Positions 5,193 to 55,126 of a stretch of DNA of 64,000 nucleotides are shown in pieces. Numbering within the stretch: position 1 is the first letter of the stretch; every line of letters begins with the position of its first letter. This stretch comes from a virus (taxonomy: Duplodnaviria > Heunggongvirae > Uroviricota > Caudoviricetes), in IMG/VR virus record IMGVR_UViG_645951848_000002, one strand, 5' to 3'. A program made the translations under genes and the position numbers. The notes under the pieces were generated by a model. It saw nothing but the letters and a program-made list of their open reading frames with translations. It was not told the DNA's origin and made no database searches.

Positions 5193-5210
5193 AATTACGC
5201 CAGCGTAATT
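5193..5210. promoter_or_regulatory. GC-rich palindromic motif, copy 1 (AATTACGCCAGCGTAATT, perfect 8-bp arms)
   Basis: Lies in the 42-bp gap between genes, 16–33 nt upstream of the helicase start and immediately 5' of its RBS. Confidence 0.5.
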
Positions 5211-5219
5211 TATTTATTT

Positions 5220-5732
5220 TTAATCTTTATTTTCAATACTACCAAATAGTAAAGATAATATTTGGTCCATACTTTTCGGTAATTCTTTTGTAGAACTTCT
5301 AAATTTTCTTGAAGATTCTTTTTTAATTTCTTCTTTTTTATCTCCAATATTTAATTTTTTATAAAGTTCTTTTAAATCTTCATTTGTAGCTTCTTTTGAT
5401 TTTAGTTCATTGTTTTCATCTTTTTCAAATTTATAAACTTTTATATTATGTACCTTATCATTATAATCTTCATAATCATTTTTTTCCTTATCATTATAAA
5501 AAATTTTTATTTGTTCAAATTCTTTTTTGAATGTAGATAACATTAATTCTTTGAAAAATTCTTTAATCTCCTCTTCTTTAAATTTTGAAATTTCATCATT
5601 TAAAAATGATTCTATATTTTCATCATAATTTTCTTTATTAATTTCACCAACAATTACACCTTTTGCTAAATTTCCTTTTACACCATTAATAATTTTTCCT
5701 AATTTATTTTCTAATTCTTCTCTTTTTAGCAT
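5220..5732 (-). CDS. hypothetical protein (170 aa), acidic and K-rich
   Basis: ORF only. Confidence 0.5.
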   Translation of the reverse strand: MLKREELENKLGKIINGVKGNLAKGVIVGEINKENYDENIESFLNDEISKFKEEEIKEFFKELMLSTFKKEFEQIKIFYNDKEKNDYEDYNDKVHNIKVYKFEKDENNELKSKEATNEDLKELYKKLNIGDKKEEIKKESSRKFRSSTKELPKSMDQILSLLFGSIENKD

Positions 5733-5925
5733 TTTTTCCTCCTGTTATTTTTATTTATTTTTATTTTTTAATTCTATCTATTCTTAAATAAATTTTATCA
5801 ATTTTAAATTGTATAAAACTAAGTTCTTTATAAACATCTTCTAAATTTAACTAAGCTATATTATCCTCATCAATATAACCACGAACATTATTAACAGTTA
5901 TTAAATTATTCATCTCACACCTCTT

Positions 5926-6522
5926 TTATTTATGATGTCTAAACCATCTTTTTTTTGTTTGTATTCCTTTTAAACTATGTCTTAATTTAGCAATATTTTT
6001 AGGAAGATAAATATGGTCAACATCTTCATCTTCTATTATCTCATCATAGTTTTTTACTTTTGAAATTATTTCTTTATCTTTTGTATATAAATGAACTTTT
6101 CTATTTTTTAGTAAATCTTTGATATTAGACATTTTCCCTGAATGAGAATAAAAAGCATTTACATCAAATCTGATTTGAGATTTATTACCTATTACTTCAC
6201 AAGAAACAGAACCAGCTGATTCATCGTAATTATCTAGGTTAGTATAAGTACAATATGCTTCATGATAAGCTTCTTCTATTGTTCTCCAAGATTCTCTTTC
6301 ATTATTAGAGAATTTAACACCATATATATTAGGTATACCTATTTTTTCTTTTAAAAAAGTAATACTATATAAATCTATATTAAAACAACTAGTACATAAC
6401 ACAATATCCAAATCTGTTAATTTAAATCTTTTTATATGTTGTTCATTATTTTCATAATAAGCTATATGTAAGTATTTTTTATTAGCTAATTTACCATATT
6501 CTTTTTTTAACCAATTTTTCAT
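5926..6522 (-). CDS. hypothetical protein (198 aa) directly upstream of the RNA ligase
   Basis: ORF only. Its position next to the RNA ligase suggests a possible RNA-repair partner (inference). Confidence 0.5.
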   Translation of the reverse strand: MKNWLKKEYGKLANKKYLHIAYYENNEQHIKRFKLTDLDIVLCTSCFNIDLYSITFLKEKIGIPNIYGVKFSNNERESWRTIEEAYHEAYCTYTNLDNYDESAGSVSCEVIGNKSQIRFDVNAFYSHSGKMSNIKDLLKNRKVHLYTKDKEIISKVKNYDEIIEDEDVDHIYLPKNIAKLRHSLKGIQTKKRWFRHHK

Positions 6523-6534
6523 CTAATGCTCCTT

Positions 6535-7626
6535 TTATACAATAGCTCCTATGTGTTTTTGATACCATTCAGAAGCTGAATTGCCTACTACTTTTTTAAC
6601 ATTTTTTAAACTTAAATTGTTATTTTCTATAAAAATTTTATCTTCTCTTAGACAATCTTCTATTACCCAATTAATAAAAACTTTTATATTACTCATTGTT
6701 TCTCTTAGTGATAATTCTTTTAAGTATTCTAATCCTTGTTTCATTCTGGATTCTGTAATTAAATTATCTTTTATAAAATCTAACTCTTGTAATAATTTTA
6801 GATTTTTTTCTAAATTAGCTTTTTGTGCTTTTGATTGAAATTTCTCAATTTTAGATTTAAAGAAACAAATTTCATTATTTAATTCATAATGCCAAACAAT
6901 TCCTTCTCCACAATTATATTCTAAATTCAATTTATTAGATAAACCTAATTTTTCACAGAATAAACATTTATTTTTATATATTGAAGTATATTCTAAGACT
7001 TTTTCTTTTAACCAATTTAGATTTTCTTTTATATTTACTTCAATTTCAAAATCTTGTTTAAAATTCCCAAATATTCTATATTCCTCATTCCATAATTTTA
7101 AATTTTCTGGAATTACTATTTTATCAGTTCTTTCTTTTTTATTTATAATTCTTATACAAAATGGGGCAAAAAACATTTTAAAATAACTAGTAGCTATTTT
7201 TTCCCCTATTTTATCTCCAGCATATTCACCATAAATAATTACAGTATTATATTCACTTATATATTTTTTTAATTGCAATCTAAGCCAATTAATTTTTTCC
7301 TTTGTCATAAATTCAATAAAACCGTAACTATCATTTTCTTTTTCTAATAATAAATTTCTTCCTTGTAATCTAACTTCATCATCATCAAATACTACACTAA
7401 CATTAGTTCCATTTATTTTTGTTATACCTTTTAAAGTAATTTTATCTTGATTTATTTTATAAGCATCTCTTTGTAACTTGTAAATAAATTCATTAAAATA
7501 TTCTATATGTTGAAATTTAATAGCTTCAATACTCAACGAAATCCTCCTTTTCTTTTTCTTGTAAATTTTCACAAGTTGTTTTATACTTGCAATTATTACA
7601 TTGAAAACATTTATATTTTTGTCCAT
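6535..7626 (-). CDS. ATP-dependent RNA ligase (T4 Rnl2-like nucleotidyltransferase)
   Basis: KINGTNVSVVF matches nucleotidyltransferase motif I (KxxG, cf. T4 Rnl2 KIHGTN). IIYGEYAGDKIG fits a downstream motif. The size is right. The listed start overlaps the upstream ORF by 100 nt, so the true start may be further in. Confidence 0.6.
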   Translation of the reverse strand: MDKNINVFNVIIASIKQLVKIYKKKKRRISLSIEAIKFQHIEYFNEFIYKLQRDAYKINQDKITLKGITKINGTNVSVVFDDDEVRLQGRNLLLEKENDSYGFIEFMTKEKINWLRLQLKKYISEYNTVIIYGEYAGDKIGEKIATSYFKMFFAPFCIRIINKKERTDKIVIPENLKLWNEEYRIFGNFKQDFEIEVNIKENLNWLKEKVLEYTSIYKNKCLFCEKLGLSNKLNLEYNCGEGIVWHYELNNEICFFKSKIEKFQSKAQKANLEKNLKLLQELDFIKDNLITESRMKQGLEYLKELSLRETMSNIKVFINWVIEDCLREDKIFIENNNLSLKNVKKVVGNSASEWYQKHIGAIV

Positions 7627-9362: not shown

Positions 9363-9962
9363 TTAATTTATTTTTTTTAATTTTGGATTATTAAAATTCA
9401 AAGCTAAAATAACAGCATCTGATTTATCATTATCTTTTTTAAATGTTGTTAAGTCTAAAATTGGATATTTAGATTTAACAAATTTAAAAGCTTCTTCTTT
9501 AGTGTTTGGTTTTATTTTTAAATAACTTCTTGAAGAAGTTGGTGATATTTCATATATTTCTAAACCATTCTCAAATAAAAAATGATCTATTATGCCATGT
9601 AATTTCATTAATGGTCCTACTGATTTGATGGTAAAAGTAGATATAAAAGGAGATTCTATGATAGCTTTATAAGGTCTATATTTAGATATTATTTCTAATA
9701 TCCAATATAATATTTCTAAATTTCTTTCATGATTTGCTAATTTATTATTACCTTTAAAAGAATTCAAAAATAAGAAATAATTTTTTTCATGATCATATAC
9801 TGAAATTCCAGGGCAAGTTTTACTTAGGTCTATTGAAATTAGAAGATTTTTTTTTAAAGTTTTTCCAATATTCTTTGTTAATTCTTTTTCTTTCATTACT
9901 TTGTTCTTTATTTCTTTTATATCTTTGGTAATAGACATTATATTCATCATTCCCTTTTTCAA
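9363..9962 (-). CDS. RuvC-like Holliday-junction resolvase
   Basis: LLISIDLSKTCPGIS is the catalytic Asp region (cf. RuvC IILGIDPG). IIESPF is the middle acidic motif. C-terminal DKSDAVILALNF matches RuvC D-AADALAIA. The real start is probably internal (MKEKELT at about 9896) because of overlap with 9820..10314. Confidence 0.6.
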   Translation of the reverse strand: MKKGMMNIMSITKDIKEIKNKVMKEKELTKNIGKTLKKNLLISIDLSKTCPGISVYDHEKNYFLFLNSFKGNNKLANHERNLEILYWILEIISKYRPYKAIIESPFISTFTIKSVGPLMKLHGIIDHFLFENGLEIYEISPTSSRSYLKIKPNTKEEAFKFVKSKYPILDLTTFKKDNDKSDAVILALNFNNPKLKKIN

Positions 9963-10314
9963 TTATTTTATCCATTTCATTTTCTTTAAATAACAATTCC
10001 AAATCATTAACTGTTGGAAAATAATTAGTATTAAAATTTAAAAGACATATCTTTCCTAATTTATGAAAATTATGTCTTTCTTCATCATTTTTTTTATATT
10101 TAAGTAAATCTTTTGTTTTTTTAAAGAAAAAACCATCAATTTTTTCAGAATAATGTTGTTCGCCATTTACTTCTATGCAAATTGGTGGAGAAGTAGGGAA
10201 GTAAAAATCATATTTTTTACTCCCTTCTCTTACTTCTTCTAACAAAACAACATTATATATTTTAGAAATTATTTTTAATATTTTCTTCATATGTAAATGT
10301 GCTTTTGATAACAT
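9820..10314 (-). CDS. putative DUF559/Vsr-like restriction-endonuclease-fold protein
   Basis: ICIEVNGEQHY resembles the IEVDGxxH core of DUF559/very-short-patch-repair-like endonucleases. The low-complexity C-terminus overlaps the resolvase gene. Confidence 0.4.
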   Translation of the reverse strand: MLSKAHLHMKKILKIISKIYNVVLLEEVREGSKKYDFYFPTSPPICIEVNGEQHYSEKIDGFFFKKTKDLLKYKKNDEERHNFHKLGKICLLNFNTNYFPTVNDLELLFKENEMDKIIEKGNDEYNVYYQRYKRNKEQSNERKRINKEYWKNFKKKSSNFNRPK

Positions 10315-11441
10315 TAAACCACCCGTTTTGTATTCAATTTTTTATAATATTCTTCTGTTAATTCACTTAATCTATCTTCTATATTATTTATTAAGTCTAT
10401 ATGTTCTTTTGTTAATTCTTCTAATCTACCTTTAGTTTGCAACATAATCATAGACATTAATTGAGTAGATATATTTTCTAAGTAAGATTTAACACCTATT
10501 TTTTGAGAAGTTTTTGATTTTTCTTCAATTTCTTTTTCGATTTTTTTATTTACATTTTCCATTTTTTCTTCAAATGTTTCTTCTTCTTTCAATAAATCAT
10601 TTTTAACATTTAAAGTTCTTTCAATTTCTTTATTTTCTTCTTTTTCTATTAAGTTTTCTTCAGAAGAATTATCAGTTACTAAATTTTGAGATTCTGAAAT
10701 TGTTTTTTCTGTTAATTTTATTTCTTCTTTTTTTCTATTTTTTTCTTCTTCATTATAATCTTTTCCTTCTTTTAGCAATGAAATTGCTTCTCTTAATTGT
10801 ATTTTATTTAAATCAGAATATTTAAAATAGAAATTTTTAATTTTATGTTTTGTTTCACTAGAAATTTTTCCAGGGATTTCATTGTAAAACTTAATTAAAG
10901 AATAGATTTCTTCCATCATAGAAACTCTATCTACTTTATCAATTTCATCTTCTAGTATTTCTTTATGTATAACTGTCCAAGCAAATAAACTTCTTCCTCT
11001 TCTTTCATCAATTTTAAACATTCTAATAAAATCTACTATACTTAAATTAGATAATTTACCTTGATCTATAAAAGATTTATAAATTCCATAAATTGAAGTC
11101 GCTATATCATAATCACTTAATCTTTGTCCATGATTAATATTTTCATTAATAGCATCTTTTTGTAAACCTTCTATTTTTGAATATTCAGTTATATAAGCTC
11201 TAATTGTTTCTAAACCTAATCTTTTTGAAGCTTCTAATCTGTGATATCCATCTACAACAATTAATTCTCCATTAATTAAACCTAAATGTATTTCTGGAAA
11301 ATATTCAGATTCAATTAATGATTTTAAATTTTCTTCTAATAATCCATGTTTTCTTGGGTTAAAATTTTTTTCACTAATATCTTTTATTTTTACTTCTATT
11401 ACTTTTTTTATTCCATCTTTACTAATTTCTAAATTGGCCAT
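10314..11441 (-). CDS. ParB-like nuclease-domain (ParB/Srx N-terminal) protein with a long coiled-coil C-terminus
   Basis: LGLINGELIVVDGYHRLEASKRLGLETIRAYI is the ParB N-terminal box (GxxR / DG.HR). Confidence 0.7.
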   Translation of the reverse strand: MANLEISKDGIKKVIEVKIKDISEKNFNPRKHGLLEENLKSLIESEYFPEIHLGLINGELIVVDGYHRLEASKRLGLETIRAYITEYSKIEGLQKDAINENINHGQRLSDYDIATSIYGIYKSFIDQGKLSNLSIVDFIRMFKIDERRGRSLFAWTVIHKEILEDEIDKVDRVSMMEEIYSLIKFYNEIPGKISSETKHKIKNFYFKYSDLNKIQLREAISLLKEGKDYNEEEKNRKKEEIKLTEKTISESQNLVTDNSSEENLIEKEENKEIERTLNVKNDLLKEEETFEEKMENVNKKIEKEIEEKSKTSQKIGVKSYLENISTQLMSMIMLQTKGRLEELTKEHIDLINNIEDRLSELTEEYYKKLNTKRVV

Positions 11442-17082: not shown

Positions 17083-17555
17083 TATTTTTCTCCTTGTTTT
17101 TATTTTTAGTAATTTTTATTTTAAACAATTTTACGCCAGCGGAATTTAAATTGGATTTTTTATAATGGGAGATTTTTGTTTAAATTCCTTTGGCTGAATT
17201 TTTATAAATTAATTGAGATAATTTCAGCCAGATACAAAATATGAAGCTAAAGCAAAGCAAAAAACTTTTATTCTGGATTTTATATATTCTTTATTCTATA
17301 TATTTTAAATTTGAGATTTTATAACTTTAAAATTTAAATTAAAAACTTTTAACTAAAATCTAAAATCTTAATGAAACTTAGAAACCAGTTTCTAGGTTAT
17401 GGGTATTTAATTGTAATTTAAATAATTACATACCAAATCATATATTTTTTAGAATTTATTCAAAATTTTTCTTATTATTTATACTTTTAAGAAAAATCAA
17501 GAAAAAAGAAAAAGTACCTTATTTTTATATTTTTCAAAATTATCTCAATTTTTAA
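17083..17555. promoter_or_regulatory. 473-bp non-coding region, the longest in the window; candidate promoter cluster or replication origin
   Basis: It has no ORF. It contains GC-motif copy 2 (17131..17146). It has the inverted repeat GGCTGAATTT...AATTTCAGCC (17192..17235). It has the palindrome TAGAAAC-CA-GTTTCTA (about 17379..17394). It has AT tracts. It sits between the HU/primase-helicase genes and the next operon. Confidence 0.4.
17131..17146. promoter_or_regulatory. GC-rich palindromic motif, copy 2 (TTACGCCAGCGGAATT)
   Basis: Lies 49 nt upstream of the HU start, inside the 473-bp non-coding region. Confidence 0.5.
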
Positions 17556-31507: not shown

Positions 31508-32353
31508 TTATTCTCCTTCTAATAGTAATTTTTCATATCTTTTTAATAAGTTTATAATTTTAGTATTATTACTTTTAAAAGTCTTTAAATCTTTTTTAAC
31601 TTCTTCTATTTTATCGCTATTTGCTTCTGTTATATATTCATTTAAATCAAAATTTAAACCAAGTAATCTTGATTTAACAGCTATATAAAAAGCATAATCT
31701 TCTTTTATAGGTTCAAGATTATAATTTTTATTTTCTTCAACTATTTTTTGTCCATTATCAATTACTGTACTTTTTAATTCTTTAAATAATTGATTATCAT
31801 TTACAAAATCAAATAAATATATTAAGTGTTTTTTCAATGAACTTTTCAGTAAAGAAATTATTTTATTAAAATCTTCTATAATTTCTTCTGGAAGTATAAC
31901 TTCATTTATATCTATTAAATGTTGTATTTTTACATTATTTAATTCAGATAATGAATTTATACTTTTTAATAATATTTGATTTTCTGTTAAATCTTTTCTA
32001 AATTCATCTTTTTCTACGCCAGCGTAATTTCTTATTAAATTATATACGTTCAAAATCATCAAGAAATTATTTAAACTTTTTTTATTTTTAACAACTGTAT
32101 TTCCTATATATGTAATAAAAGATACTATATCTAATTTAAGAGCTTTTATTCTTTTATTTTTTTCTATATAATTATCTTTTATTTTTACTATTTTATAAGC
32201 TCTACCTATACAACTATCACAGAAATCTTTTATTTTAACACTATTTTTAACGTTACATAATGAACTAAATGTTAAAAAATATTCACCTAAGATTTCTTTT
32301 AATAATTCAAATGCTAATTTATTGTAATCATATTTCTTTTTTAATTTTTTCAT
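31508..32353 (-). CDS. hypothetical protein (281 aa); contains GC-motif copy 3 in-frame (codes IRNYAGVEK)
   Basis: ORF only; the motif lies at 32024..32039 inside the coding sequence. Confidence 0.5.
   Translation of the reverse strand: MKKLKKKYDYNKLAFELLKEILGEYFLTFSSLCNVKNSVKIKDFCDSCIGRAYKIVKIKDNYIEKNKRIKALKLDIVSFITYIGNTVVKNKKSLNNFLMILNVYNLIRNYAGVEKDEFRKDLTENQILLKSINSLSELNNVKIQHLIDINEVILPEEIIEDFNKIISLLKSSLKKHLIYLFDFVNDNQLFKELKSTVIDNGQKIVEENKNYNLEPIKEDYAFYIAVKSRLLGLNFDLNEYITEANSDKIEEVKKDLKTFKSNNTKIINLLKRYEKLLLEGE
32024..32039. promoter_or_regulatory. GC-rich palindromic motif, copy 3 (CTACGCCAGCGTAATT), intragenic
   Basis: Lies inside ORF 31508..32353, in frame. Confidence 0.4.
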
Positions 32354-40162: not shown

Positions 40163-40174
40163 AATTAATCACTT

Positions 40175-40190
40175 CTCCGCTGGCGTAATT
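40175..40190. promoter_or_regulatory. GC-rich palindromic motif, copy 4 (CTCCGCTGGCGTAATT, inverted orientation)
   Basis: Lies in the 28-bp gap between genes, 13 nt upstream of the 40162 start and overlapping its SD-like GGAG. Confidence 0.5.
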
Positions 40191-45987: not shown

Positions 45988-46248
45988 TTAAACATTATAA
46001 CAAAATTTAATTTTATTTTTTATTTTTTCATCAATTAAATCTGAATTTAAAACTAAATTTATTTTTTCTTCTTTTTTTATTGATAATATTCTTTCTTTAT
46101 AAAATCTTTGTTTTTCTAAATTGTTTATATTTTCAATAAATTTTATAACTCCATCAAATGTATTTTCGAACTTAACTAACCAATCAAATCCAGCTTCTTT
46201 AAAATCTACTAATCTATATGTATAATATTTACTTATAAGATAAATCAT
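45988..46248 (-). CDS. small protein of the 'KLYxNL-tail' family (86 aa)
   Basis: C-terminus LNSDLIDEKIKNKIKFCYNV. Confidence 0.55.
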   Translation of the reverse strand: MIYLISKYYTYRLVDFKEAGFDWLVKFENTFDGVIKFIENINNLEKQRFYKERILSIKKEEKINLVLNSDLIDEKIKNKIKFCYNV

Positions 46249-46257
46249 TTTATTCTC

Positions 46258-46518
46258 CTACAAATTATAATATAGTCTTATTTTATTTTTTATTTTTTCT
46301 TCTACAAATTTTGAATTTAAAAACAAATCTATTTTTTGTTCCTTTGTAAGTAAATTTCCTCTTATATTTATAAAAAGAAAAATTTCATTTAAATTTTTAA
46401 AAATTTTGTTTGGTATTAATTGAAAAGATTTATTATTTATCATTTTATATTCTTGATTTACAACTTCATATTCATAATACATTTTTTCTTTATTATGTAC
46501 CATAACTAATTTATACAT
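46258..46518 (-). CDS. small protein of the 'KLYxNL-tail' family (86 aa)
   Basis: C-terminus LNSKFVEEKIKNKIRLYYNL. Confidence 0.55.
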   Translation of the reverse strand: MYKLVMVHNKEKMYYEYEVVNQEYKMINNKSFQLIPNKIFKNLNEIFLFINIRGNLLTKEQKIDLFLNSKFVEEKIKNKIRLYYNL

Positions 46519-46794
46519 TTTTTTCTCCTTTCAAATTAAGATAAAGTTCTATTTTTATTTTTAATTTTTCATTAATAGATTCGCAATTTAATATTTGTTT
46601 TATTTTAAATTCTTTTCTAAAGCATCGATTATTTTCAATAAAATTAATAATAGATTCTAGATTATTTTCAAATATATCTTTTATATATTCAACCTACATC
46701 TTTTATCTTTCTCGGCTTCTAAATTTGATAAGAATACACTTTTAAAAATTTCACTTCCAATTTCTGTTTCTATATAATAATAACTATATTTCAT
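46514..46794 (-). pseudogene. frameshifted or decayed member of the 'KLYxNL-tail' family
   Basis: The minus strand reads MKYSYYYIETEIGSEIFKSVFLSNLEAEKDKRCRLNI*. In another frame it then reads ...ILNCESINEKLKIKIELYLNL, which is the family tail. No intact ORF of 60 aa or more exists. Confidence 0.55.
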
Positions 46795-46802
46795 TAATTC
46801 TC

Positions 46803-47147
46803 CTATAAATTAAAATATAACTTTAGTTTATTTTTAGTACTTTCTTTAATTTTTTCTGTTTTTAAAAAAGCTTCTAACATTAAATTAAAAAATTGTTTTT
46901 TATATTTATGTATTTTAAAATTTTTAATTATGTCTTCCAAATTATCATCAAAATAAAAAACTTCATTAAATTCTTGAATATATTTAAATTTTTCTCCTAT
47001 TTCAAGAATTATATTTTCCTTTTTTTCTGGAGTTTTAGATAATGAATCTAAAATTATATATTCTCTTCCTTTAACTTTTGAACTAAATATAATATTATTA
47101 TCATTAACTAGTTGTTCTGATTTTATTACTTCTATTAATTTAAACAT
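46803..47147 (-). CDS. small protein of the 'KLYxNL-tail' family (114 aa)
   Basis: C-terminus LKTEKIKESTKNKLKLYFNL. Confidence 0.55.
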   Translation of the reverse strand: MFKLIEVIKSEQLVNDNNIIFSSKVKGREYIILDSLSKTPEKKENIILEIGEKFKYIQEFNEVFYFDDNLEDIIKNFKIHKYKKQFFNLMLEAFLKTEKIKESTKNKLKLYFNL

Positions 47148-47593
47148 TTTATATCTCCATTAATCACATTACATTTTCCAGATATTTTATTTGCATTTAT
47201 ATCGCCATTTGTTATAGTTACATCATTTCTAACATCATTACAAGTAACAGTACCATTTATTAATTTTATGTTATATACATTTCCATTTACACTTACAGTT
47301 TCACAACTATCAATACTTATAAAATTTTTATCTCCATATATTTCTATTTTTATATTTTTTTCTTCTATATTCTTTAAGTTTTCTATAAAAGAACCATTTA
47401 TATAAATTTTATTATTTGAAATTGTTAAATTTCCAGAAGAAATATTATTATATTTTTTTCCATTTATAATTATTTGATTTTTTACGCTAGCGGAATTTTT
47501 ATCATTTTTATTTTTTATATTATTCTCATTTTTAATTTCTTTTTTATTTTCAAAAATATTTATATTTAAGATTCTTTTTAAAAATTCAAACAT
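47135..47593 (-). CDS. putative bactofilin-like (DUF583) beta-helical repeat protein; contains GC-motif copy 5 in-frame
   Basis: The C-terminal half has repeated short beta-strand units: VSVNGNVYNIKLINGTVTCNDVRNDVTITNGDINANKISGKCNVINGDIKC. These are reminiscent of bactofilin repeats. The assignment is tentative. Confidence 0.35.
   Translation of the reverse strand: MFEFLKRILNINIFENKKEIKNENNIKNKNDKNSASVKNQIIINGKKYNNISSGNLTISNNKIYINGSFIENLKNIEEKNIKIEIYGDKNFISIDSCETVSVNGNVYNIKLINGTVTCNDVRNDVTITNGDINANKISGKCNVINGDIKCLN
47482..47497. promoter_or_regulatory. GC-rich palindromic motif, copy 5 (TTACGCTAGCGGAATT), intragenic
   Basis: Lies about 100 nt inside ORF 47135..47593 and codes KNSASVK. Confidence 0.4.
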
Positions 47594-47596
47594 AAA

Positions 47597-47854
47597 TTAC
47601 CTCCAAAACAAAAATAATGTAAAAGATGTTATAAAAATAATTACTAAGAAAACTATTATTTTTTTATATTTTTTTATTTTTTTAAATAACAATTTATTTT
47701 TAAATGTTGTTTTTTCATCTTCCCCATAATATTCTATATTTTCTTTTAATTCATCTTTTAGATCTTGATAATCTACTAATATAATTCCTAATATAGTTGA
47801 ACTAATTAAAGATAAAAGCATAAGTATTTCTTTTATTAATAAATATCGAATCAT
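47597..47854 (-). CDS. small 2-TM membrane protein (85 aa)
   Basis: Hydrophobic ORF. Confidence 0.45.
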   Translation of the reverse strand: MIRYLLIKEILMLLSLISSTILGIILVDYQDLKDELKENIEYYGEDEKTTFKNKLLFKKIKKYKKIIVFLVIIFITSFTLFLFWR

Positions 47855-47868
47855 TTGATTTTCCTTTC

Positions 47869-47902
47869 AATTAAAAAATAGAGTGAAAAAATTCACTCTA
47901 TT
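47869..47902 (-). terminator. rho-independent terminator after the SPFH gene
   Basis: Perfect 11-bp stem AATAGAGTGAA/TTCACTCTATT with loop AAAA, followed on the minus strand by a T-run. Confidence 0.7.
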
Positions 47903-48710
47903 CATCTAATTTAATCAATGTACTTCCATTATTTCCCTGAACCTGTGGAAGTTTTCCATCCCATTTTTCAATAGCCATCTTTCTTAAAAGTTGAGGAGTT
48001 AACGAATTACTTTCAATAGAATTAGCTTTTGCTTGTAATTCTTTTTGCTTTAATTCATATTCAGCCAATTTAACTTTATTTTCTTGTTCTACAAGTAATT
48101 TAGCTTGTTCTGCCTTTGCTTTTTCAACTGATTGTTCAGCAACTTTTTTACCTTCTATTGCTTTCTCATATTCATCTGAAAAATCATGATTAACAATAGA
48201 TACGTTACTTACTGATATTCCATATTGTGCAAAATCATCTTTTAAATCTTCAAATATCAATTTTGAAATTTCAGCTCTTTTACTTACGAACTCTTCTATA
48301 GTATATTTAGCTATTGTAGCTTGGACAATTTCTTTAACTCTTGGTCTAATGAATCTATTTTCATATTTTGTTCCAAAAGCTCGGTATAATTTTTCTGGAT
48401 CAGAAATATTAGCCTGAACCGAAAATTCTAATTTAATTGATTGCATATCCTTAGTTGAAACTTCTAAAGTAGTATCTTGCTCTTCTGTTTTTCCAAATAT
48501 GTACGATCTTTCTCTAGTTTCTAAGAATACCTTAGATTGTATTAAAGGAAATTTAAAGTGTAATCCTTCACCTTCAACTTTATCCAATTTACCATTTGTG
48601 CTAATAATAGCTACTTCTCCAGTATTAACAGTATAACAGTTTGTTAATCCTGTTCCTAAAATTAATGCAAATAATACTCCTAATAATATATGTTTTAGTT
48701 TAATGTTCAT
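47898..48710 (-). CDS. SPFH/Band-7 (stomatin/flotillin/HflK-like) membrane protein
   Basis: N-terminal TM helix followed by YTVNTGEVAIISTNGKLDKVEGEGLHFKFPLIQSKVFLETRERSY, the SPFH domain start. The C-terminus is a coiled coil (EKAKAEQAKLLVEQENKVKLAEYELKQ). Confidence 0.75.
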   Translation of the reverse strand: MNIKLKHILLGVLFALILGTGLTNCYTVNTGEVAIISTNGKLDKVEGEGLHFKFPLIQSKVFLETRERSYIFGKTEEQDTTLEVSTKDMQSIKLEFSVQANISDPEKLYRAFGTKYENRFIRPRVKEIVQATIAKYTIEEFVSKRAEISKLIFEDLKDDFAQYGISVSNVSIVNHDFSDEYEKAIEGKKVAEQSVEKAKAEQAKLLVEQENKVKLAEYELKQKELQAKANSIESNSLTPQLLRKMAIEKWDGKLPQVQGNNGSTLIKLDE

Positions 48711-48720
48711 TTCTTCTCCT

Positions 48721-49119
48721 TTAAAAAAATATTTTTATTTTAATAATTTTAAATCTAATTCTATGATAATCAATTTCTTCTAATTTTTTAATTTTTAACA
48801 AAATTTCAATTTCTTTTTTAAAATTTTTAAATATTTTTCCGTATATATATTTTAACTTATTTTTTTTTACTTTTTTTCTTTTTGAAATTTTATACAAAAG
48901 AATTATTTCTTCTAAATGAAAAATATCCTTAATACTTGTAAAATAATCTAAATATTTTTTATTTATAATTTCTCCATTTTCTTTTTCTATTATAACTATA
49001 ATACTAACTAATAAATTTAATTTTGTTTTTATCTTAATAAAATCAAAAAATAAATAAAAAAAAGAAATTATTGAAAAAATAATAATTAAAAAAATAATTA
49101 TAAATAATTTAAAAATCAT
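48721..49119 (-). CDS. small membrane protein (132 aa)
   Basis: Hydrophobic N-terminus with a basic C-terminus. Confidence 0.45.
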   Translation of the reverse strand: MIFKLFIIIFLIIIFSIISFFYLFFDFIKIKTKLNLLVSIIVIIEKENGEIINKKYLDYFTSIKDIFHLEEIILLYKISKRKKVKKNKLKYIYGKIFKNFKKEIEILLKIKKLEEIDYHRIRFKIIKIKIFF

Positions 49120-49456
49120 AAAATCTATCTACCTTTTTAATACTTGTTATTTCTATATTATTATCTTGAATTAAGATATATTTGAATTTATATATATTTC
49201 TTAATTCTTTATCAATTTCAATTCTTATAATTGAATTTAGTAATTCTCCTTTATAATTTTTTGTATTAAAAATAGAATATCTTGAAGATCTCTTATAAAC
49301 GCAAAAAAAATATTCACGATATCTATCTTTATATTTAAAATAACATGAACCTGTAATTTGAAAAGTTATATTTTTAAAAGAATAAAATAAATCAACTATA
49401 ATAACAGCTAATAATAATAAAATCATAAAATTCATATTTTCACCTATACATGACAA
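49109..49456 (-). CDS. membrane protein, possible NfeD-like partner of the SPFH protein
   Basis: N-terminal TM helix plus a C-terminal beta-rich domain (FQITGSCYFKY...IIRIEID...YILIQDNNIEITSIKKV), directly upstream of the SPFH gene as in SPFH-NfeD operons. Inference. Confidence 0.35.
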   Translation of the reverse strand: MSCIGENMNFMILLLLAVIIVDLFYSFKNITFQITGSCYFKYKDRYREYFFCVYKRSSRYSIFNTKNYKGELLNSIIRIEIDKELRNIYKFKYILIQDNNIEITSIKKVDRFYDF

Positions 49457-50163
49457 TCCAAAACAGTTATATAATATTCTGGATATTCTTTTTGTAATTC
49501 TTTTAATTTTTCTATTAAAGGTTCTTTTTTTGGAGTATCAAATATTTTATAATCTTCTGGCCAGACTATGTACTGTATCCCAGATAAATTATAATCTTTA
49601 TATTTATCAATAAAATCTTCTTTAGTTAATTGTTCTGATTCTATTATTCTTTTATAATATTCAAAATCATTTTTTTCTTCTTTTTTTTTACAAATATAAT
49701 TTTCATCATATAATTTATCCCATATTTCAGAAAAATATTTAATGAATCCAGTTTCTTCAAAATTTAAATCTTTTAATTTAAAACTTGTAATAACTTCATT
49801 ATTTTTGTTACTTAACGTAATCTTCCAACGTCCTCCAATTTCATACCAATCATAAAAACTATTAGGATTACTTAAATATCCATATTTTTCACCATTTTCT
49901 ATTTCATAAGTTTCATAACCAAATTCTTTATAGGCATAATCAGAAAGGCTAGGATATTTTTTTAAAAAATCTTTTATTTCAAAACTAAATTTACCATTAT
50001 TTTTTTCAATTTCATTTATTTTTTCAATGTATTCTTCAATTACTTCATCTGTATAATCTTCTAATTTAAGATATTTTTCGCTATATTCAGAATATTTGTC
50101 CATCTCTTCATAAATAGCATCTTCAGAATTATCTTCTGAAATTAATAAACAACCAAAATGCAT
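49444..50163 (-). CDS. hypothetical protein (239 aa)
   Basis: ORF only. Confidence 0.5.
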   Translation of the reverse strand: MHFGCLLISEDNSEDAIYEEMDKYSEYSEKYLKLEDYTDEVIEEYIEKINEIEKNNGKFSFEIKDFLKKYPSLSDYAYKEFGYETYEIENGEKYGYLSNPNSFYDWYEIGGRWKITLSNKNNEVITSFKLKDLNFEETGFIKYFSEIWDKLYDENYICKKKEEKNDFEYYKRIIESEQLTKEDFIDKYKDYNLSGIQYIVWPEDYKIFDTPKKEPLIEKLKELQKEYPEYYITVLDCHV

Positions 50164-50176
50164 TATTTCCTCCTTT

Positions 50177-50962
50177 TTATAATATAAATTTTATTGTTAT
50201 AAATTCTTTTAAAATAGCAAAATGATATTTAGATTCAACATATTCAATATTAGGCTTGATAAAACTTTTTAGATATAATTTAGTGTTTTTGTTAAAACAA
50301 ATACAACAACCTCTAAACATATCTTTTAATTCTTTATATGAAATATTATTTATTTCTATTTTAAATCCTTGAAAATGTCTATTAATATAATTAAAATCAT
50401 TCATTTCTTTAATTTTATTAAATTCATCAATAAAGTTTTGTTTTTCTATATTTTCATTAGATAATAAAATATTATTAGATAGAATTTCTAATGATTCTTC
50501 TAATGTTTTATTTTTATTTTTTTCAAGATTAAAATTAATTTCAAATAATATTTTTTTAAATTTAGTATTATTAAGTTTTTCCAAAGTCTTGTCTTCAACT
50601 TTATAATTTATTAATTTAAAAATTTCATGAACAGAAACGAATACAAATTCTTTTTTTAATAATTTTTGTAATAAAATATTAGCTAATTCATGTAATAGTA
50701 ATATTCCAGATAAAAACTCATTTGATTTAACATCTCTTTCAATTTCTTCAAAATTTACACTTAACGATTTTATTTTAATTTCTTTATTAGAAGTATCATA
50801 ATGTTTAGCAAATTCTGATATTAAGTATGTTTCATTAAAAGAATCTTGTTTTGGTAAATTACCATTTAAATCTTTTGCAACTTCCCCTTTATCATTTAAA
50901 TATTTTTTAATTTCTTTATTAATAAATTCTTTTAAATATTTTTTATTTATCATTATCAACAC
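50177..50962 (-). CDS. hypothetical protein (261 aa)
   Basis: ORF only. Confidence 0.5.
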   Translation of the reverse strand: MLIMINKKYLKEFINKEIKKYLNDKGEVAKDLNGNLPKQDSFNETYLISEFAKHYDTSNKEIKIKSLSVNFEEIERDVKSNEFLSGILLLHELANILLQKLLKKEFVFVSVHEIFKLINYKVEDKTLEKLNNTKFKKILFEINFNLEKNKNKTLEESLEILSNNILLSNENIEKQNFIDEFNKIKEMNDFNYINRHFQGFKIEINNISYKELKDMFRGCCICFNKNTKLYLKSFIKPNIEYVESKYHFAILKEFITIKFIL

Positions 50963-51651
50963 TCTTCTTGGAATAATTGTATTAATTTTTTAAATAATTG
51001 TTTATCATAATTGTAGTAAAACTCTTCTTTTTTATTTTTATCATTTTCAATTGTTTTATTTATATTTATTAATATATCTTCTAATTCTGCTATTAATTCT
51101 GGATATTTTTTGCATGATTCTTTAAAAAGTTTTTCATTGTTTTCTTTTTCTTTTCTTAAATTTAAAATTAATTCTTTTTCTTCTTCCGAAAGATGAATTT
51201 CATTTTTGTCATAATTTTCTAATCCAAGAATATAAGATGGATTTACTTTATATATTTCTGCTAGTTTGTTTATATTATCAATTGGTATATTTGTAATATC
51301 TGTATTTTCATATTTTAATATTGTAGAAGAGGTTATATTTAAAAAATCAGCTACTTTCTTTAATGATAAATTATTTTCAATCCTTAGTGTTTTTAATTTA
51401 TTTGCTATTTCAATTTCTTTTAATGTTGCTTTTTTCTTTTTTCTTGAAAAGTTAATATCATTTAAAAGTTCTTTTATATCAACTTGTAAAATTTCAGATA
51501 AAAGAATTAATTTGTCAATTCTCATATTTTTTATCTCTTCATTTTCATATCTTGAAATTGAACTTTCTGAAACATTAAGTTTTTTAGCAATATCTTTTAA
51601 AGAAAGATTTAATTTTTTTCTTCTTTTTTTTATTATTTCTCCTATACTCAT
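50956..51651 (-). CDS. transcriptional regulator with two tandem XRE-type helix-turn-helix domains
   Basis: The first HTH is IKKRRKKLNLSLKDIAKKLNVSESSISRYENEE. The second is LKTLRIENNLSLKKVADFLNITSSTILKYENTD. Both follow the Cro/CI pattern. Confidence 0.75.
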   Translation of the reverse strand: MSIGEIIKKRRKKLNLSLKDIAKKLNVSESSISRYENEEIKNMRIDKLILLSEILQVDIKELLNDINFSRKKKKATLKEIEIANKLKTLRIENNLSLKKVADFLNITSSTILKYENTDITNIPIDNINKLAEIYKVNPSYILGLENYDKNEIHLSEEEKELILNLRKEKENNEKLFKESCKKYPELIAELEDILININKTIENDKNKKEEFYYNYDKQLFKKLIQLFQEEC

Positions 51652-51653
51652 AA

Positions 51654-51974
51654 TTATTCATCTCTAAATCTTAATAAATTTTCAGTTGATTTTATCGCTA
51701 ATTCTTCTTCACTATTAGCACCATCATCATACCAATCAATATAAGCAAATAATTTTTTTAATTCATCTGAAAAGTTAGTATTTATTTCAATTTCATCTTG
51801 CATTGATTCACTTTGTTTAATTTCATCAAGATAACAATCATATAATTCTTCTAATTTTTTAGTATATATTCCAGTAATTTTAGCTTCGTTTAAAAAATGA
51901 ATTCTTTTATTTTTTAAAGCTATGTCTATTAAAATTTCTTCTTTTGTTTTTTGTTTGGTTTCTAATTTTTTCAT
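51654..51974 (-). CDS. hypothetical protein (106 aa)
   Basis: ORF only. Confidence 0.45.
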   Translation of the reverse strand: MKKLETKQKTKEEILIDIALKNKRIHFLNEAKITGIYTKKLEELYDCYLDEIKQSESMQDEIEINTNFSDELKKLFAYIDWYDDGANSEEELAIKSTENLLRFRDE

Positions 51975-52156
51975 TTTTTTCTCCTTTTATCTATTTTTAA
52001 TAAATTTAATTTGCTCTAATAATTCTGGATATTTTAATTTGAATTCTTTTATTCTTTTAAATTCTTCTATTGAATATTCTTCTCCTTTCATTAATCTTTC
52101 AATTATTTCTGGTACATCATAATAAAATTTAGATATTTTTTTTAGTTCAAACATTT

Positions 52157-52651
52157 TCAAATCTCCTTATTAAATCTTTTAATGTCTATGAAATCAGAGA
52201 TTGATAATCCTCTAGCTTCATATGGATATTTTTCCTCATAAAGCCATTCATTGCAATTTTCTCTAAAATTTTCTATTATATCTGACATATTTAAAAGTTT
52301 ATATTCTAGATCTTTTAAATTATTTATTTTACTATTTTCTGAAAATGTTCTATTTTCTTTTTCATAAAAAATATCTATTGAATAAAAATTAAATTCATTA
52401 TCATCTAAACAATTAGAATAAAATAATTGAAGAAATGGATTTAAATTATAAAATTCCTTTTCCCATTTATAAACTATTTTTTCTTTAAAAAATAAGAATA
52501 ATAAATCTGCTAAATAATCATTTTCTAATTCCTCAACAATTTCTAGTTTTTCATTAAATATAATTAGATTCCATTTTGAAGTATTAATTCTATATTCTAA
52601 TGAAAATTTTAATTTATCTAATTCTTTTAAACATTTTTTTATAGTTTTCAC
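52157..52651 (-). CDS. hypothetical protein (164 aa)
   Basis: ORF only. Confidence 0.5.
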   Translation of the reverse strand: MKTIKKCLKELDKLKFSLEYRINTSKWNLIIFNEKLEIVEELENDYLADLLFLFFKEKIVYKWEKEFYNLNPFLQLFYSNCLDDNEFNFYSIDIFYEKENRTFSENSKINNLKDLEYKLLNMSDIIENFRENCNEWLYEEKYPYEARGLSISDFIDIKRFNKEI

Positions 52652-52953
52652 AACACCACCTCATAAAAACTTTCTGTAAAAATATCTTTTAAATTTTTAT
52701 TTATAAGAATAAATATTTTGGGATTTTTAATAAAATATGAATCTGTATACAAATATTGAATTTCATTTTTTAAATAAGATTTATGTTTAGCAAATAAAAT
52801 TGTGCAACATTCTTTTAATTGCATATATTTTTTTATACTTAACTCTGGATATTTAAAAATAATACAATCAATAAAAAAACCATTTTTTAAAAAAAATCTT
52901 CTTTTTTGATATTTAAATTGTTTTCCTATTATTCTTATAAAATCATTTTCCAT
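52648..52953 (-). CDS. hypothetical protein (101 aa)
   Basis: ORF with a 4-nt overlap. Confidence 0.45.
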   Translation of the reverse strand: MENDFIRIIGKQFKYQKRRFFLKNGFFIDCIIFKYPELSIKKYMQLKECCTILFAKHKSYLKNEIQYLYTDSYFIKNPKIFILINKNLKDIFTESFYEVVL

Positions 52954-52970
52954 CTTCCATAAAACTCCTT

Positions 52971-53001
52971 TATAAAAAAAGGAACTTTTTTAAGTTCCTT
53001 T
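52971..53001 (-). terminator. rho-independent terminator after dut
   Basis: AAGGAACTT-TTTT-AAGTTCCTT hairpin, followed on the minus strand by T7. Confidence 0.65.
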
Positions 53002-53040
53002 TACGAATTATTAAATTACGAATTATATTAAAACGAAGTA

Positions 53041-53484
53041 TTATTTTGTTCCAGTGCTTCCGAACCCGTTTGTTCCTCTATTTGATTCTCCAATATTATC
53101 TGTTATTTCCCAAGTTATTTGTTCTACTCTATTTAAAACCATTTGTGCAATTCTCATTCCAGGTTCAACTGTAAAAGTTTCTTTTCCTAAATTAGTAAGT
53201 ATAACACCTATTTCTCCTTTATAATCCGCATCTATTGTAGCGGGAGTATTCAACATAGTTAATTGATTTTTCAATGCTAAACCACTTCTTGGTCTTAATT
53301 GAATTTCATATCCATCTGGAATATCCAATTGTAATCCAGTAGGTATTAATTTTGTTTCTCCTACTTTTAATTCTATTGGTTCTTTATTATAAGAATAAAT
53401 ATCAGCTCCAGCTGATAATTCTGTTCCGTATTTTGGTAAATTTAAACCATCTTTCTTTAATACTCTTATTTTTACTTTGTTCAT
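53041..53484 (-). CDS. dut: dUTP diphosphatase (dUTPase)
   Basis: AGADIYS is motif 1. RPRSGL is motif 2. TIDADYKGEIGVIL is motif 3. RIAQMV is motif 4. C-terminal NRGTNGFGSTG is motif 5. Confidence 0.9.
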   Translation of the reverse strand: MNKVKIRVLKKDGLNLPKYGTELSAGADIYSYNKEPIELKVGETKLIPTGLQLDIPDGYEIQLRPRSGLALKNQLTMLNTPATIDADYKGEIGVILTNLGKETFTVEPGMRIAQMVLNRVEQITWEITDNIGESNRGTNGFGSTGTK

Positions 53485-53488
53485 TTTT

Positions 53489-53731
53489 TTATTTCTCCTT
53501 TATATTGTCTATTATATTGTCTATTAAATTTTCCATTTTTTTATTTATATTTTCTTCTTGATTTTTAATAAAATCTTGAAGTTTTTTTATTTCTTTTTCT
53601 GCAAATTCGTAAAAATCTTTATATGAATTAAGATTGCATATTTCAATTAATAATTTTTTATAATCTTCAGTTGTTATTTTTTTATTAAAAAAATTTTCTT
53701 TTATTTTTTTGAATTTTTCATTATCTATCAT
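53489..53731 (-). CDS. hypothetical protein (80 aa)
   Basis: ORF only. Confidence 0.4.
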   Translation of the reverse strand: MIDNEKFKKIKENFFNKKITTEDYKKLLIEICNLNSYKDFYEFAEKEIKKLQDFIKNQEENINKKMENLIDNIIDNIKEK

Positions 53732-53740
53732 TATTCACCT

Positions 53741-54760
53741 CTACAATTTTATTTCTATTCTGTCGTAGTCTTTTTGTTCTTTTATTCTATTTAAAGAATT
53801 TTTACTACTAGTATAATATTCGCAACAGGTCCTTCTTGCTTCACAATAATCACAATTATTTTCATAGAAGTTTTTTATTTGAATTTTATTTTGAATAATA
53901 GAAATAATTTTCATTAACTCTATATCCGGAAAAGAATGATCAAAATCTTTAAAATAATAAACAAGTCTTTTCATAGTAAGAGGATTATAAACTATGACAG
54001 AATTAATTGCAAACCAATTATCTAAAAAATATTTATTATATTCTGATTTATTTAATTGTTTGTTAAAATAATGAAATAAATTAGAGATCCAAAAATATTT
54101 TTGTTTCATTTCTTCCATAATGGTAAATGGTGACATCATAATAATATCAGCTAAATTATCTCCTATTTTATTTAAACTAAGTATATGATAATCCATATTA
54201 AAATTAGTTTCTGATAATTCTTTAAAATCTATTTTTGGAAGATTATTTATTATGTATGGATTCTTCATTTCACTTATTCTTTTTTCTAAATAATTACTTA
54301 TTTTTATTTTTATTTTAAAACAATTGTCAAATGAATTTTCCAAGTCTTTATCTAAAAATAAATTAATTAAATTTTCTAAATTATTAAATATATGTTGTTT
54401 TACTTCATCATAATCTTCTTGTTTCACACTAAGATTAGAAGCTAACTTTTTATTATTAATAATTGTTTTTTCTGTTATCAAAATAGCTATTTTTTTTAAT
54501 TGAGAATAATTTACTTTTTTTTCTTTGAACAAAGTTTGAAACATTTTAAAAAAAATAGATTTATAAATTTTATATTTAAGTAAATTATATTCAACAAAGT
54601 TATTAGGTATCCTAAACATTTCACTTTTACCGCTAACTTCGTTTCTTAAATCAAAAACAGAAGTTCTTTTCATAGATAACATACCTCTTTGTTGACATTT
54701 ATAAAATTTCATTAAATTAATATCATTTATTGTAATATCAGATTTCATTATTCTTCCCAC
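53741..54760 (-). CDS. hypothetical protein with a Cys cluster (N-terminal YKCQQ and C-terminal CDYCEARRTCC); possible Cas4-like PD-(D/E)xK nuclease
   Basis: A 1 + 3/4 Cys arrangement, typical of Cas4-family Fe-S nucleases. The assignment is tentative. Confidence 0.4.
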   Translation of the reverse strand: MGRIMKSDITINDINLMKFYKCQQRGMLSMKRTSVFDLRNEVSGKSEMFRIPNNFVEYNLLKYKIYKSIFFKMFQTLFKEKKVNYSQLKKIAILITEKTIINNKKLASNLSVKQEDYDEVKQHIFNNLENLINLFLDKDLENSFDNCFKIKIKISNYLEKRISEMKNPYIINNLPKIDFKELSETNFNMDYHILSLNKIGDNLADIIMMSPFTIMEEMKQKYFWISNLFHYFNKQLNKSEYNKYFLDNWFAINSVIVYNPLTMKRLVYYFKDFDHSFPDIELMKIISIIQNKIQIKNFYENNCDYCEARRTCCEYYTSSKNSLNRIKEQKDYDRIEIKL

Positions 54761-55056
54761 TTTTCATAAGAATTACAATCTTTACATTTATCATTTTCTT
54801 CAGTTTTTTCTTTTTTAAAAAATATTTTTTTTGTTATAAAATTTATAATTTCTTTTAAAAATACACTAATTATCAATAATAAAACTATTTGAAAAATCAC
54901 TTTAATATTTATCAAATAATATACTCCTAATCCTAAAATTAATATTTGGATTATATCTCCAATAGTTTCACTTTTTTCATTTTTTTCACATACATTTTTT
55001 AATCTAACAATTAGCATAAAAACTATAATTACAAAATATAAAATTTTTAAAAACAT
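54748..55056 (-). CDS. membrane protein (102 aa, 2–3 TM helices) with a C-terminal CxxC
   Basis: Hydrophobic ORF. GC-motif copy 6 lies 55 nt upstream of its start. Confidence 0.45.
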   Translation of the reverse strand: MFLKILYFVIIVFMLIVRLKNVCEKNEKSETIGDIIQILILGLGVYYLINIKVIFQIVLLLIISVFLKEIINFITKKIFFKKEKTEENDKCKDCNSYEKWEE

Positions 55057-55110
55057 AATATTCTCCTTTTATTTTTTTCTAATTATAATTTTTATTTTAT
55101 TAACTTTCAA

Positions 55111-55126
55111 TTCCGCCAGCGTAATT
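55111..55126. promoter_or_regulatory. GC-rich palindromic motif, copy 6 (TTCCGCCAGCGTAATT)
   Basis: Lies 55 nt upstream of the 55056 start, immediately after a terminator-like hairpin (GAGGAAGA-ATTAA-TCTTCCTC, 55138..55157) that ends the VWA gene. Confidence 0.5.

Follow-up and report, generated by a model that had tools for sequence, protein, structure and literature searches.

The element described here is a GC-rich, dyad-symmetric motif of about 18 bp that recurs six times (S1 to S6; Table 1) in a 64,000-nucleotide stretch of tailed-phage DNA, IMG/VR record IMGVR_UViG_645951848_000002, which was analysed over its whole length and is referred to below as the window. The motif fits a double-stranded-DNA site of a dimeric protein. 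As to the protein, the reading favoured here, although tentative and falling somewhat short of an even chance, is that the copies form a set of parS/OB/NBS-like sites for an orphan protein of the ParB/Noc/KorB fold encoded in the same window. This preference draws on a predicted fold, on the layout of the sites and on the comparison of four phage clades.

All six copies listed in a first-pass annotation of the window are present, five of them at the positions given, while the third lies at 32014 and not at 32024. Their CGCYRGCG cores start at 5198, 17134, 32017, 40178, 47485 and 55114. The pattern proposed in that annotation gives, with at most two mismatches, nine strand-hits in the window that correspond to six loci, against 0.01 expected from dinucleotide-preserving shuffles (n = 100); none of the 100 shuffles reached the count, and the claim that chance recurrence is unlikely is thus borne out. 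The sequence CGCNNGCG is found exactly six times in the window, each time within the same ~18-bp dyad, and CGCCAGCG is the most over-represented 8-mer (~1,500-fold) of a window that has ~20% G+C throughout. On the sense (minus) strand the consensus could be refined to AATT-M-CGC-YR-GCG-K-A-R. Copy 1 had been described as a perfect palindrome; it is the only one of the six with two perfect 8-bp arms, but its CA/TG centre is not self-complementary. The spacing of the copies is more even than random (P = 0.006 for a minimum gap of at least 7.3 kb), and four of the six are intergenic versus 7.6% of the window (P = 4e-4).

Pattern scans of IMG/VR gave many low-GC contigs belonging to this phage group, and a profile search added two clades; a locus search with the helicase alone returned close relatives only. 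The motif is found in all four clades (A to D), across which identity of the ParB-like protein ranges from 39 to 97%, at about one site per 8-10 kb, and one 131-kb contig holds at least ten sites spread over its whole length. Clustering of the flanks separates ~14-18 independent positions in clade A. All 133 occurrences of CGCNNGCG in the low-GC related loci belong to the motif and they fall into 42 flank families; in an earlier count, T-N-CGC-YR-GCG-N-A, with T at -6 and A at +6, was present in 36 of 36 site families of clades A, B and D. The flanks are clade-specific. The site reads AATTMCGC-YR-GCGKAATT in clade A and, in clade B (ParB-like protein ~54% identical), AAATGCGC-CG-GCGCATTT or GCGGAGAA, the variants seen being AAATGCGCCGGCGGAGAA or AAATGCGCCGGCGCATTT. 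It reads AATACGC-CG-GCGTATT in clade D (41% identity; sites TAATACGCCGGCGTATTT and TTTTACGCCAGCGGATTT) and GTCGC-CG-GCGAC in clade C (39% identity; sites ATGGTCGCCGGCGACGAC and TTCGTCGCCGGCGACGGA), the only clade without the T-N-CGC pattern.

Conservation at orthologous positions, which had been proposed as a check, was observed, and some positions are common to clades A and B: before the HU gene, after the terminator of a VWA-like gene and in the low-complexity linker of a structural-region gene. The two clades translate the linker copy in different frames (NSAGGE versus NAPAEK), and intragenic copies as a whole occupy at least two frames in each orientation. The core and the positions are under purifying selection at the DNA level, since conserved intragenic positions are read in different frames. 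Sites are also kept where flanks or the downstream gene have changed, as for S4 and its counterpart L054:10230, which precedes a different gene, or for L011:6903 and L032:16465. Among 38 independent sites, 22 are intergenic, versus 7.6% intergenic DNA (P = 1e-15), and the other 16 are intragenic. The sole broken core, AATTCCGATGGCG (CGC to CGA), was found at the S2-orthologous site near position 4300 of L105 (Logan ERR9968972), a single metagenomic contig, and represents either a natural loss or an assembly error.

The two halves of the motif vary independently. Either A or C is found at position 5 and either T or G at position 14; all four combinations exist, and flips occur within orthologous sites. 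Of the clade B occurrences of the asymmetric form AAATGCGCCGGCGGAGAA, eight point along the sense strand and six against it. The dyad site for a dimeric DNA-binding protein suggested in the first-pass annotation is upheld by this symmetric degeneracy of independent half-sites, by the lack of covariation, by the use of either orientation and by the lineage-specific form of the site; an RNA element and a one-way promoter are excluded because of the independent half-sites, the missing covariation and the two orientations in clade B. Read on the sense strand, ~13 of the 14 independent clade A sites have TG at their centre. This bias can be attributed to a CG to TG change on a sense strand that is poor in C (7%), clade B having kept CG. 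The orientation of the central TG was considered as evidence for a promoter or a Chi-like element and dropped, clade B having a palindromic CG centre and both orientations.

A similar density in unrelated AT-rich genomes had been named as one of the findings that would refute the first-pass reading. In 185,579 species genomes (596 Gb) the strict 18-mer remains at chance level, with 105 scattered single matches against ~70 by chance according to our own estimate. None of the 80 matches listed is named Fusobacterium; the other 25 were screened by G+C only and none is below 33%. One 3-kb contig of 21% GC among the matches listed is probably mis-binned phage DNA. The scan used the strict 18-mer only, and looser copies on host chromosomes lie outside its reach. 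Since the flanks vary between clades and the matches in species genomes are at chance level, the motif is, judging from these comparisons, a property of the phage lineage.

The candidate binder had been annotated as ParB-like from the outset, and PHROG (E = 2e-5), Pfam ParB_N and Foldseek agree on it. Its N-terminal ParB/Srx domain contains NPR, DGYHR and NxNHG motifs and is followed by a predicted helix-turn-helix (HTH) with the recognition helix DERRGRSLFAW (~residues 145-160), by a disordered acidic linker and by a C-terminal helical domain. In the AlphaFold2 model (pLDDT, the predicted local distance difference test, 81.6), the top Foldseek matches are Noc, KorB and ParB, and also sulfiredoxin, with a probability of 1.0; the best of them span both the N-terminal and the DNA-binding domains, and the alignments cover 198-227 columns against C-terminally truncated Noc, KorB or ParB chains of ~190-220 residues. 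Spo0J was matched at E = 0.011 and, with a family profile, Noc at E = 0.0027, and PF02195 is precomputed on most homologues. The family comprises ~20 full-length representatives of 23-72% identity, in which G65-x-x-R68-x-x-A71 and N101 are invariant or nearly so. The putative recognition helix reads ERRGRSLF in clades A, B and D and ERVAKRYL in clade C; the helix and the site flanks are both altered in clade C, though C and D are about equally diverged. An Arg-rich helix would suit a core made only of G and C. One clade C site falls within the gene for the ParB-like protein (L238:10797).

No ParA domain was detected in the neighbouring genes, and a search for KGGxGK[ST] in the open reading frames (ORFs) of 85 related loci (~1 Mb, redundant and from partial genomes) returned only a guanylate-kinase-like ORF. 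As no ParA was found, the sites would not be a classical partition centromere, and the protein would rather resemble the orphan Noc or the regulator KorB. Pfam found no further DNA-binding family except an ORF6N domain in the 71 remaining ORFs of the window, which leaves the ParB-like, tandem-HTH, ORF6N and HU proteins as candidate binders.

Under the favoured reading, ~20 copies, one every ~8-10 kb, would be distributed over a genome of ~170-212 kb. A dimer would dock on each palindrome, its Arg-rich recognition helix reading the G/C core, and the sites would serve as loading or anchoring points from which the ParB-like protein organises or regulates the genome in the manner of KorB or Noc. 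Local repression is one conceivable mode of action, and spreading or sliding on the DNA another. Both the binding of the motif by this protein and any spreading or regulation that follows are inferred here from the fold, the site layout and the clade comparison.

Several observations weigh against this reading. The Pfam ParB_N match (E = 0.0024) is under the gathering/curated cut-off, and the DNA-binding domain rests on the predicted fold, with no significant sequence match in that region. The GERR motif reads DGYHR and the Glu of ENxxR, before N101, is not conserved; clamp or CTPase behaviour, as far as these residues tell, is uncertain. The match between helix and motif amounts to a single evolutionary event. 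No site adjoins the ParB-like gene in clades A, B and D. Clade B is dominated by one asymmetric 18-mer, which a simple homodimer does not predict. The relatives are known from partial genomes, so that the per-genome counts and the absence of ParA are non-exhaustive. Homologues of the tandem-HTH protein, the main competing candidate, are present on 130-212 kb contigs of the same phages and one is 72% identical in Fusobacterium polymorphum.

Dispersed sites of this kind are familiar from the ParB family, whose sites (parS, NBS and OB) have AT-rich arms and a conserved G/C-rich centre and exist in several dispersed copies, many of them intragenic. On plasmid RK2, 12 OB sites fall into three distance classes and those of class I abut the -35 element. 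The resemblance to KorB and OB lies in the ParB fold joined to an HTH, KorB chains being among the top Foldseek matches, and in short palindromes, AT-rich outside and G/C at the centre, that have many copies on one replicon, some promoter-proximal and some far away; S6 abuts the -35 element of a sigma-70-like match, like a class I OB. The setting differs, a phage or prophage here and a conjugative plasmid there, and no KorA, IncC or ParA partner was found here. Identity to KorB is ~17%, with DGYHR in the phage protein in place of GERR. The OB core is TTTAGCGGCTAAA (PMC11790492), whereas the site described here is 18 bp long and of other sequence.

The best structural and profile match is Noc of Bacillus subtilis (7ol9, 7nfu), likewise an orphan ParB paralogue without a ParA partner and with the same site layout of AT arms and G/C centre. 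Noc recognises ~70 dispersed NBS palindromes, ATTTCCCGGGAAAT, most of which are intragenic. However, the N-terminal amphipathic helix of Noc tethers the chromosome to the membrane, and the N-terminus of the phage protein (MANLEISKDG...) shows no obvious one; moreover, nucleoid occlusion would make no sense for a phage. Chromosomal ParB (Spo0J) and parS share with the phage system the N-terminal domain, the NPR and GxxRxxA-like motifs and dispersed, often intragenic palindromes. One B. subtilis parS lies within spo0J, and the clade C site within the ParB-like gene is placed in the same way. Differences are that the phage has no deviant Walker A ORF in the ~1 Mb of redundant related loci and that its sites are distributed genome-wide and not clustered at an origin. 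The SopB centromeres of N15 and the C1 operators of P1 also belong to phages that persist in the cell and use one short binding sequence at many separated places, in some cases within the promoter regions that serve lytic or replication genes. In N15, however, the sites number only four and a SopA partner is present, and the P1 operators are asymmetric 17-mers, all at promoters, for a monomeric non-ParB repressor, whereas ~20 dyad-symmetric sites, ~40% of them intragenic, are found here.

Table 1. Coordinates of the motif copies and of the associated features (window positions unless a related locus is named; site sequences are those of the sense strand)
Feature	Position	Strand	Sequence	Remarks
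Motif copy S1	5193..5210		AATTACGCTGGCGTAATT	Intergenic; two perfect 8-bp arms
Motif copy S2	17129..17146		AATTCCGCTGGCGTAAAA	Within a 473-bp ORF-free gap (17083-17555)
Motif copy S3	32012..32029		AATTACGCTGGCGTAGAA	Inside coding sequence 31508-32353
Motif copy S4	40173..40190		AATTACGCCAGCGGAGAA	Intergenic; centre CA
Motif copy S5	47480..47497		AATTCCGCTAGCGTAAAA	Inside coding sequence 47135-47593; centre TA
Motif copy S6	55109..55126		AATTACGCTGGCGGAATT	Between terminator hairpin and sigma-70-like promoter
Intrinsic terminator hairpin	55137..55157	-	GAGGAAGATTAATTCTTCCTC then T-run	Ends VWA-like gene 55156-56589; immediately upstream of S6
Sigma-70-like promoter	55082..55110	-	TTGAAA-17-TATAAT	11 of 12 matches; begins at the base adjoining S6
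Orphan ParB/Noc/KorB-like protein	10314..11441	-		375 amino acids (aa); favoured binder
Tandem HTH_3 (XRE-family) protein	50956..51651	-		231 aa; PHROG transcriptional regulator/repressor families
Giant ORF, clade A	L019:78-9926	-		Beta-prime double-psi beta-barrel signatures; no Pfam or PHROG match
Giant ORF, second relative	L210:143-4297	+		Beta-prime double-psi beta-barrel signatures; no Pfam or PHROG match

The surroundings of the copies bear on whether the sites are linked to transcription. The first-pass annotation had stressed four copies upstream of minus-strand starts, two of them touching a Shine-Dalgarno sequence, one terminator-motif-gene arrangement and two copies within coding sequence (S3 and S5), and all of these positions were recovered. 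S1 lies 10 nt past the stop of 5220-5732 and 15 nt before the ATG of a UvrD-like helicase gene (3810-5177), and is conserved in the relatives L011, L021, L103-L105 and L228. S2 is 46 nt upstream of the HU-like gene 16810-17082, which heads a string of primase-helicase, RecA and ParB-like genes; in clade B the motif is likewise directly upstream of the HU gene (L193:881). S4 takes up the 28 nt that separate the stop of 40191-40727 from the ATG of 39911-40162, 10 nt before the latter, and its GGAG doubles as the Shine-Dalgarno sequence, so that S1 and S4 are the two copies abutting or overlapping such a sequence. S6, which follows the hairpin, is 52 nt upstream of the ATG of 54748-55056, and the order of VWA-like gene, terminator, motif and next gene is kept in clade B (L170:10182) and in F. 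polymorphum CP077136.1. The sites orthologous to S5 in L048, L054, L226 and L227 have the centre TG. The emphasis placed on start codons and ribosome-binding sites is weakened: nearly all window genes are on the minus strand with gaps of ~10 nt, and an 18-bp insert between such genes must abut the ribosome-binding site, so that the proximity is probably a by-product, the more so as 16 of the 38 sites are intragenic.

The link of the sites to transcription is suggestive only. The dyad centre of S6 lies near -43/-44 relative to the sigma-70-like promoter, three sites in other loci are directly followed by TATAT[AT], and the promoter geometry differs between the orthologous sites S6 and L170:10182. 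Promoter-like matches as a class are no more frequent in this DNA than in shuffles (178 versus 190), which makes S6 a single suggestive case. A fixed promoter geometry was tried and rejected, the dyad centre lying near -43/-44 at S6 and near -21/-22 at three others, with no usable -10 element at S1 and S4.

The main rival, unlikely but better placed than the other alternatives, holds that the sites are dispersed operators of the tandem-HTH protein, which, as master repressor of a temperate jumbo phage, would silence many lytic operons together. The double-HTH regulator was recognised in the first-pass annotation and is confirmed as a tandem HTH_3 protein with two HTH stretches (PHROG). With its two HTH domains, a single chain would read both half-sites, the near-identical recognition helices of these domains (SESSISRYEN and TSSTILKYEN) fit a pseudo-palindrome, and the asymmetric form of clade B would be explicable. 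A lysogenic repressor is also expected from an element inside a complete F. polymorphum chromosome, the phage P1 C1 repressor acts through many scattered operators, S1, S2, S4 and S6 head gene strings, and S6 abuts the -35 element of a strong promoter-like site. Against this, the sites nearest to the gene, S5 and S6, are 3.4 and 3.5 kb away, with no sign of autoregulation, and 16 of the 38 sites lie deep in genes, including structural and RNA polymerase genes. The central 8 bp are the most conserved part of the motif, whereas dimers of the Cro/CI type as a rule make no contact with the centre. The two recognition helices contain little Arg although the core is all G/C, and the geometry relative to promoters is not conserved between S6 and its clade B orthologue.

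A bolder variant of the ParB-based reading, which we regard as rather improbable, is that an orphan ParB-like clamp, loaded at ~20 G/C islands 8-10 kb apart, spreads along and coats the 20% GC jumbo genome. Such a coat might keep host silencing or nucleases away from the DNA, and VirB, which counteracts H-NS, offers a parallel. Alternatively, the coat could compact the genome into a protected condensate or co-ordinate transcription by a giant RNA polymerase. If true, a ParB-type system would have been re-used for phage genome organisation and not for partition.

Such a polymerase has itself to be considered, as the motif might be its promoter or specificity element, although this is improbable to a further degree. 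Relatives in clades A and B encode a giant ORF, 3,282 aa in clade A and outside the window, with the beta-prime-type motifs LARNPTIYQTSI and MNGDYDGDKIY, which by these signatures is a probable phage RNA polymerase of the single-chain, two-barrel type known from crAss-like phages and P23-45; in clade B, one copy of the motif lies inside its gene. There is precedent for phage RNA polymerases directed by a motif (10.1101/2022.12.01.518664), while no common upstream motif was reported for the crAss-like virion polymerase (10.1101/2020.03.07.982082). The TG on the sense strand of most clade A sites, a site that flips with gene direction (L042:1545) and the placement of several sites directly after terminators would suit a promoter. 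On the other hand, the clade B 18-mer faces both ways relative to genes, start codons lie anywhere from -1 to more than 400 nt away, many sites fall in the middle of genes, half-sites that degenerate symmetrically are unlike a one-way promoter, and the TG bias has a neutral explanation in CG to TG deamination. The phage promoter offered as an alternative in the first-pass annotation is accordingly disfavoured by the two orientations in clade B and the mid-gene sites.

It is very unlikely that the motif is a target of site-specific nicking, cleavage or recombination. Transactions of this sort include T5-type strand interruptions, homing endonuclease sites and serine-recombinase crossovers with a central dinucleotide, and the inverted arms around a 2-bp centre, the fairly even spacing, the two HNH (one I-HmuI-like) and one GIY-YIG endonucleases of the window and a small Resolvase-domain ORF adjoining the ParB-like gene in clade B are consistent with them. 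Yet the endonuclease ORFs sit in the split polymerase gene, as is usual for homing endonucleases, and are absent from relatives that keep the motif, which also tells against the protected homing or restriction target proposed earlier, and ~20 repeated recombination sites would scramble the genome, whereas gene order is collinear among the relatives. An origin element, another of the early proposals, found no support, the copies being single and not in iteron clusters.

A site for a host factor, be it the operator of a host regulator, a Chi-like element or an uptake sequence, is less probable still. The E. coli Chi sequence is GCTGGTGG; GCTGGCGG is one base away from it and the clade A centre has a strand bias, but the 18-mer is at chance level in species genomes, where one unrelated low-GC contig and no Fusobacterium appear among the 80 matches listed, the flanks change between phage clades, and the motif is palindromic and orientation-free in clade B, unlike Chi. 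Least credible of all, and largely refuted, is an RNA or extruded-hairpin element (a 5' stabiliser, a site for an RNase or translational repressor, or a hairpin promoter as in phage N4): a 7-bp stem and 4-nt loop could form at copy 1, and in seven independent intergenic cases a Shine-Dalgarno sequence is 0-5 nt away, but this closeness is explained by the ~10-nt gaps, 67.6% of cells are paired versus 67.4% in shuffles (249 of 500 at least as high), positions 5 and 14 fail to pair in 17 of the 30 site types, the form most frequent in clade B cannot fold into a stable stem, the two orientations would give different RNAs, and copies are also present within genes.

The window encodes a Pol III alpha/PolC-like polymerase, a DnaG-DnaB-type primase-helicase, RecA and HU, together with UvrD-like and SNF2-like helicases, an RNA ligase, ThyA, a dUTPase and the ParB-like and tandem HTH_3 proteins. 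Neither megablast of positions 1-25000 nor tblastn with the clade B ParB-like protein gave a match in 50,697 phage records, and Pfam and PHROG were mostly without match for the genes flanking the sites and for the giant ORFs. Homologues of the ParB-like protein are located on metagenomic contigs of up to 212 kb. Between 41.5 and 60.5 kb (41472-60450) the window is collinear, at 87-90% identity, with positions 1,610,353-1,631,051 of F. polymorphum CP077136.1 (L226), a complete chromosome of 2.79 Mb, which has the motif at the S5 and S6 positions. Because of this collinear, motif-bearing stretch, the window is, on sequence grounds, taken to be part of a ~170-212 kb Fusobacterium jumbo phage. Two origins are conceivable for the F. 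polymorphum stretch, a ~200-kb jumbo prophage or the mis-joining of a phage genome, and the phage may be temperate.

Other features of the window were observed in passing. The Pol III alpha/PolC-like gene is in pieces (24708-27314; 23219-23611, a finger domain; 21933-22208), between which lie three free-standing homing-endonuclease ORFs of the HNH/I-HmuI-like (24005-24691), HNH (22341-23102) and GIY-YIG (21152-21883) types; the product is uninterrupted in relatives (1108-1266 aa), and Rfam detected no intron in the split region 21152-27314. Four stretches of 340-980 bp are free of ORFs (27951-28932, 20578-21151, 17083-17555, which holds S2, and 18183-18519), and neither a tRNA scan nor Rfam at the gathering threshold gave a match, these stretches included. 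The 12-mer ATGATAATCAAT / AATTGATTATCA has five copies in the window, ~45 times the expectation from composition, and could represent another recurring site. At 56631-63889, six ORFs of 315-432 aa follow one another and may form a paralogous array; weak AAA-ATPase matches were obtained for the first only, and clade B has kept the first two. Among the plus-strand ORFs only 35597-36937 (446 aa) is sizeable; it runs opposite to all other genes, has a counterpart of 64% identity in clade B (L224:578-1903) and is without family match. The Resolvase-domain ORF of clade B (118 aa, with the catalytic domain of serine recombinases) runs into the end of the ParB-like gene (L100:11139-11495, L102:5668-6024), and its place in the window is taken by a 164-aa ORF (9820-10314) without family match. 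Finally, ORF 28933-29739 has a metallo-beta-lactamase fold and weakly matches Apyc1, an anti-Pycsar protein (E = 3e-5, which falls short of the cut-off), so that a counter-defence nuclease for cyclic nucleotides is possible from its sequence.

ParB-family systems with dispersed palindromes are already known on chromosomes (ParB, Noc) and plasmids (KorB), and we found no report in the literature of such a system in a jumbo phage, nor for Fusobacterium phages. The motif supplies a marker for this widespread oral phage group in metagenomes. If the link between the ParB-like protein and the motif holds, it would provide a testable protein-DNA pair in a clinically relevant host genus. Were the ParB-like protein the binder, placing the ERVAKRYL helix in the clade A protein would be expected to move its preference towards GTCGCCGGCGAC. 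The same link would make the motif a set of sites whose positions have been retained through deep phage divergence, and the four clades a variant series in which the specificity of a ParB-type protein co-evolves with its site.

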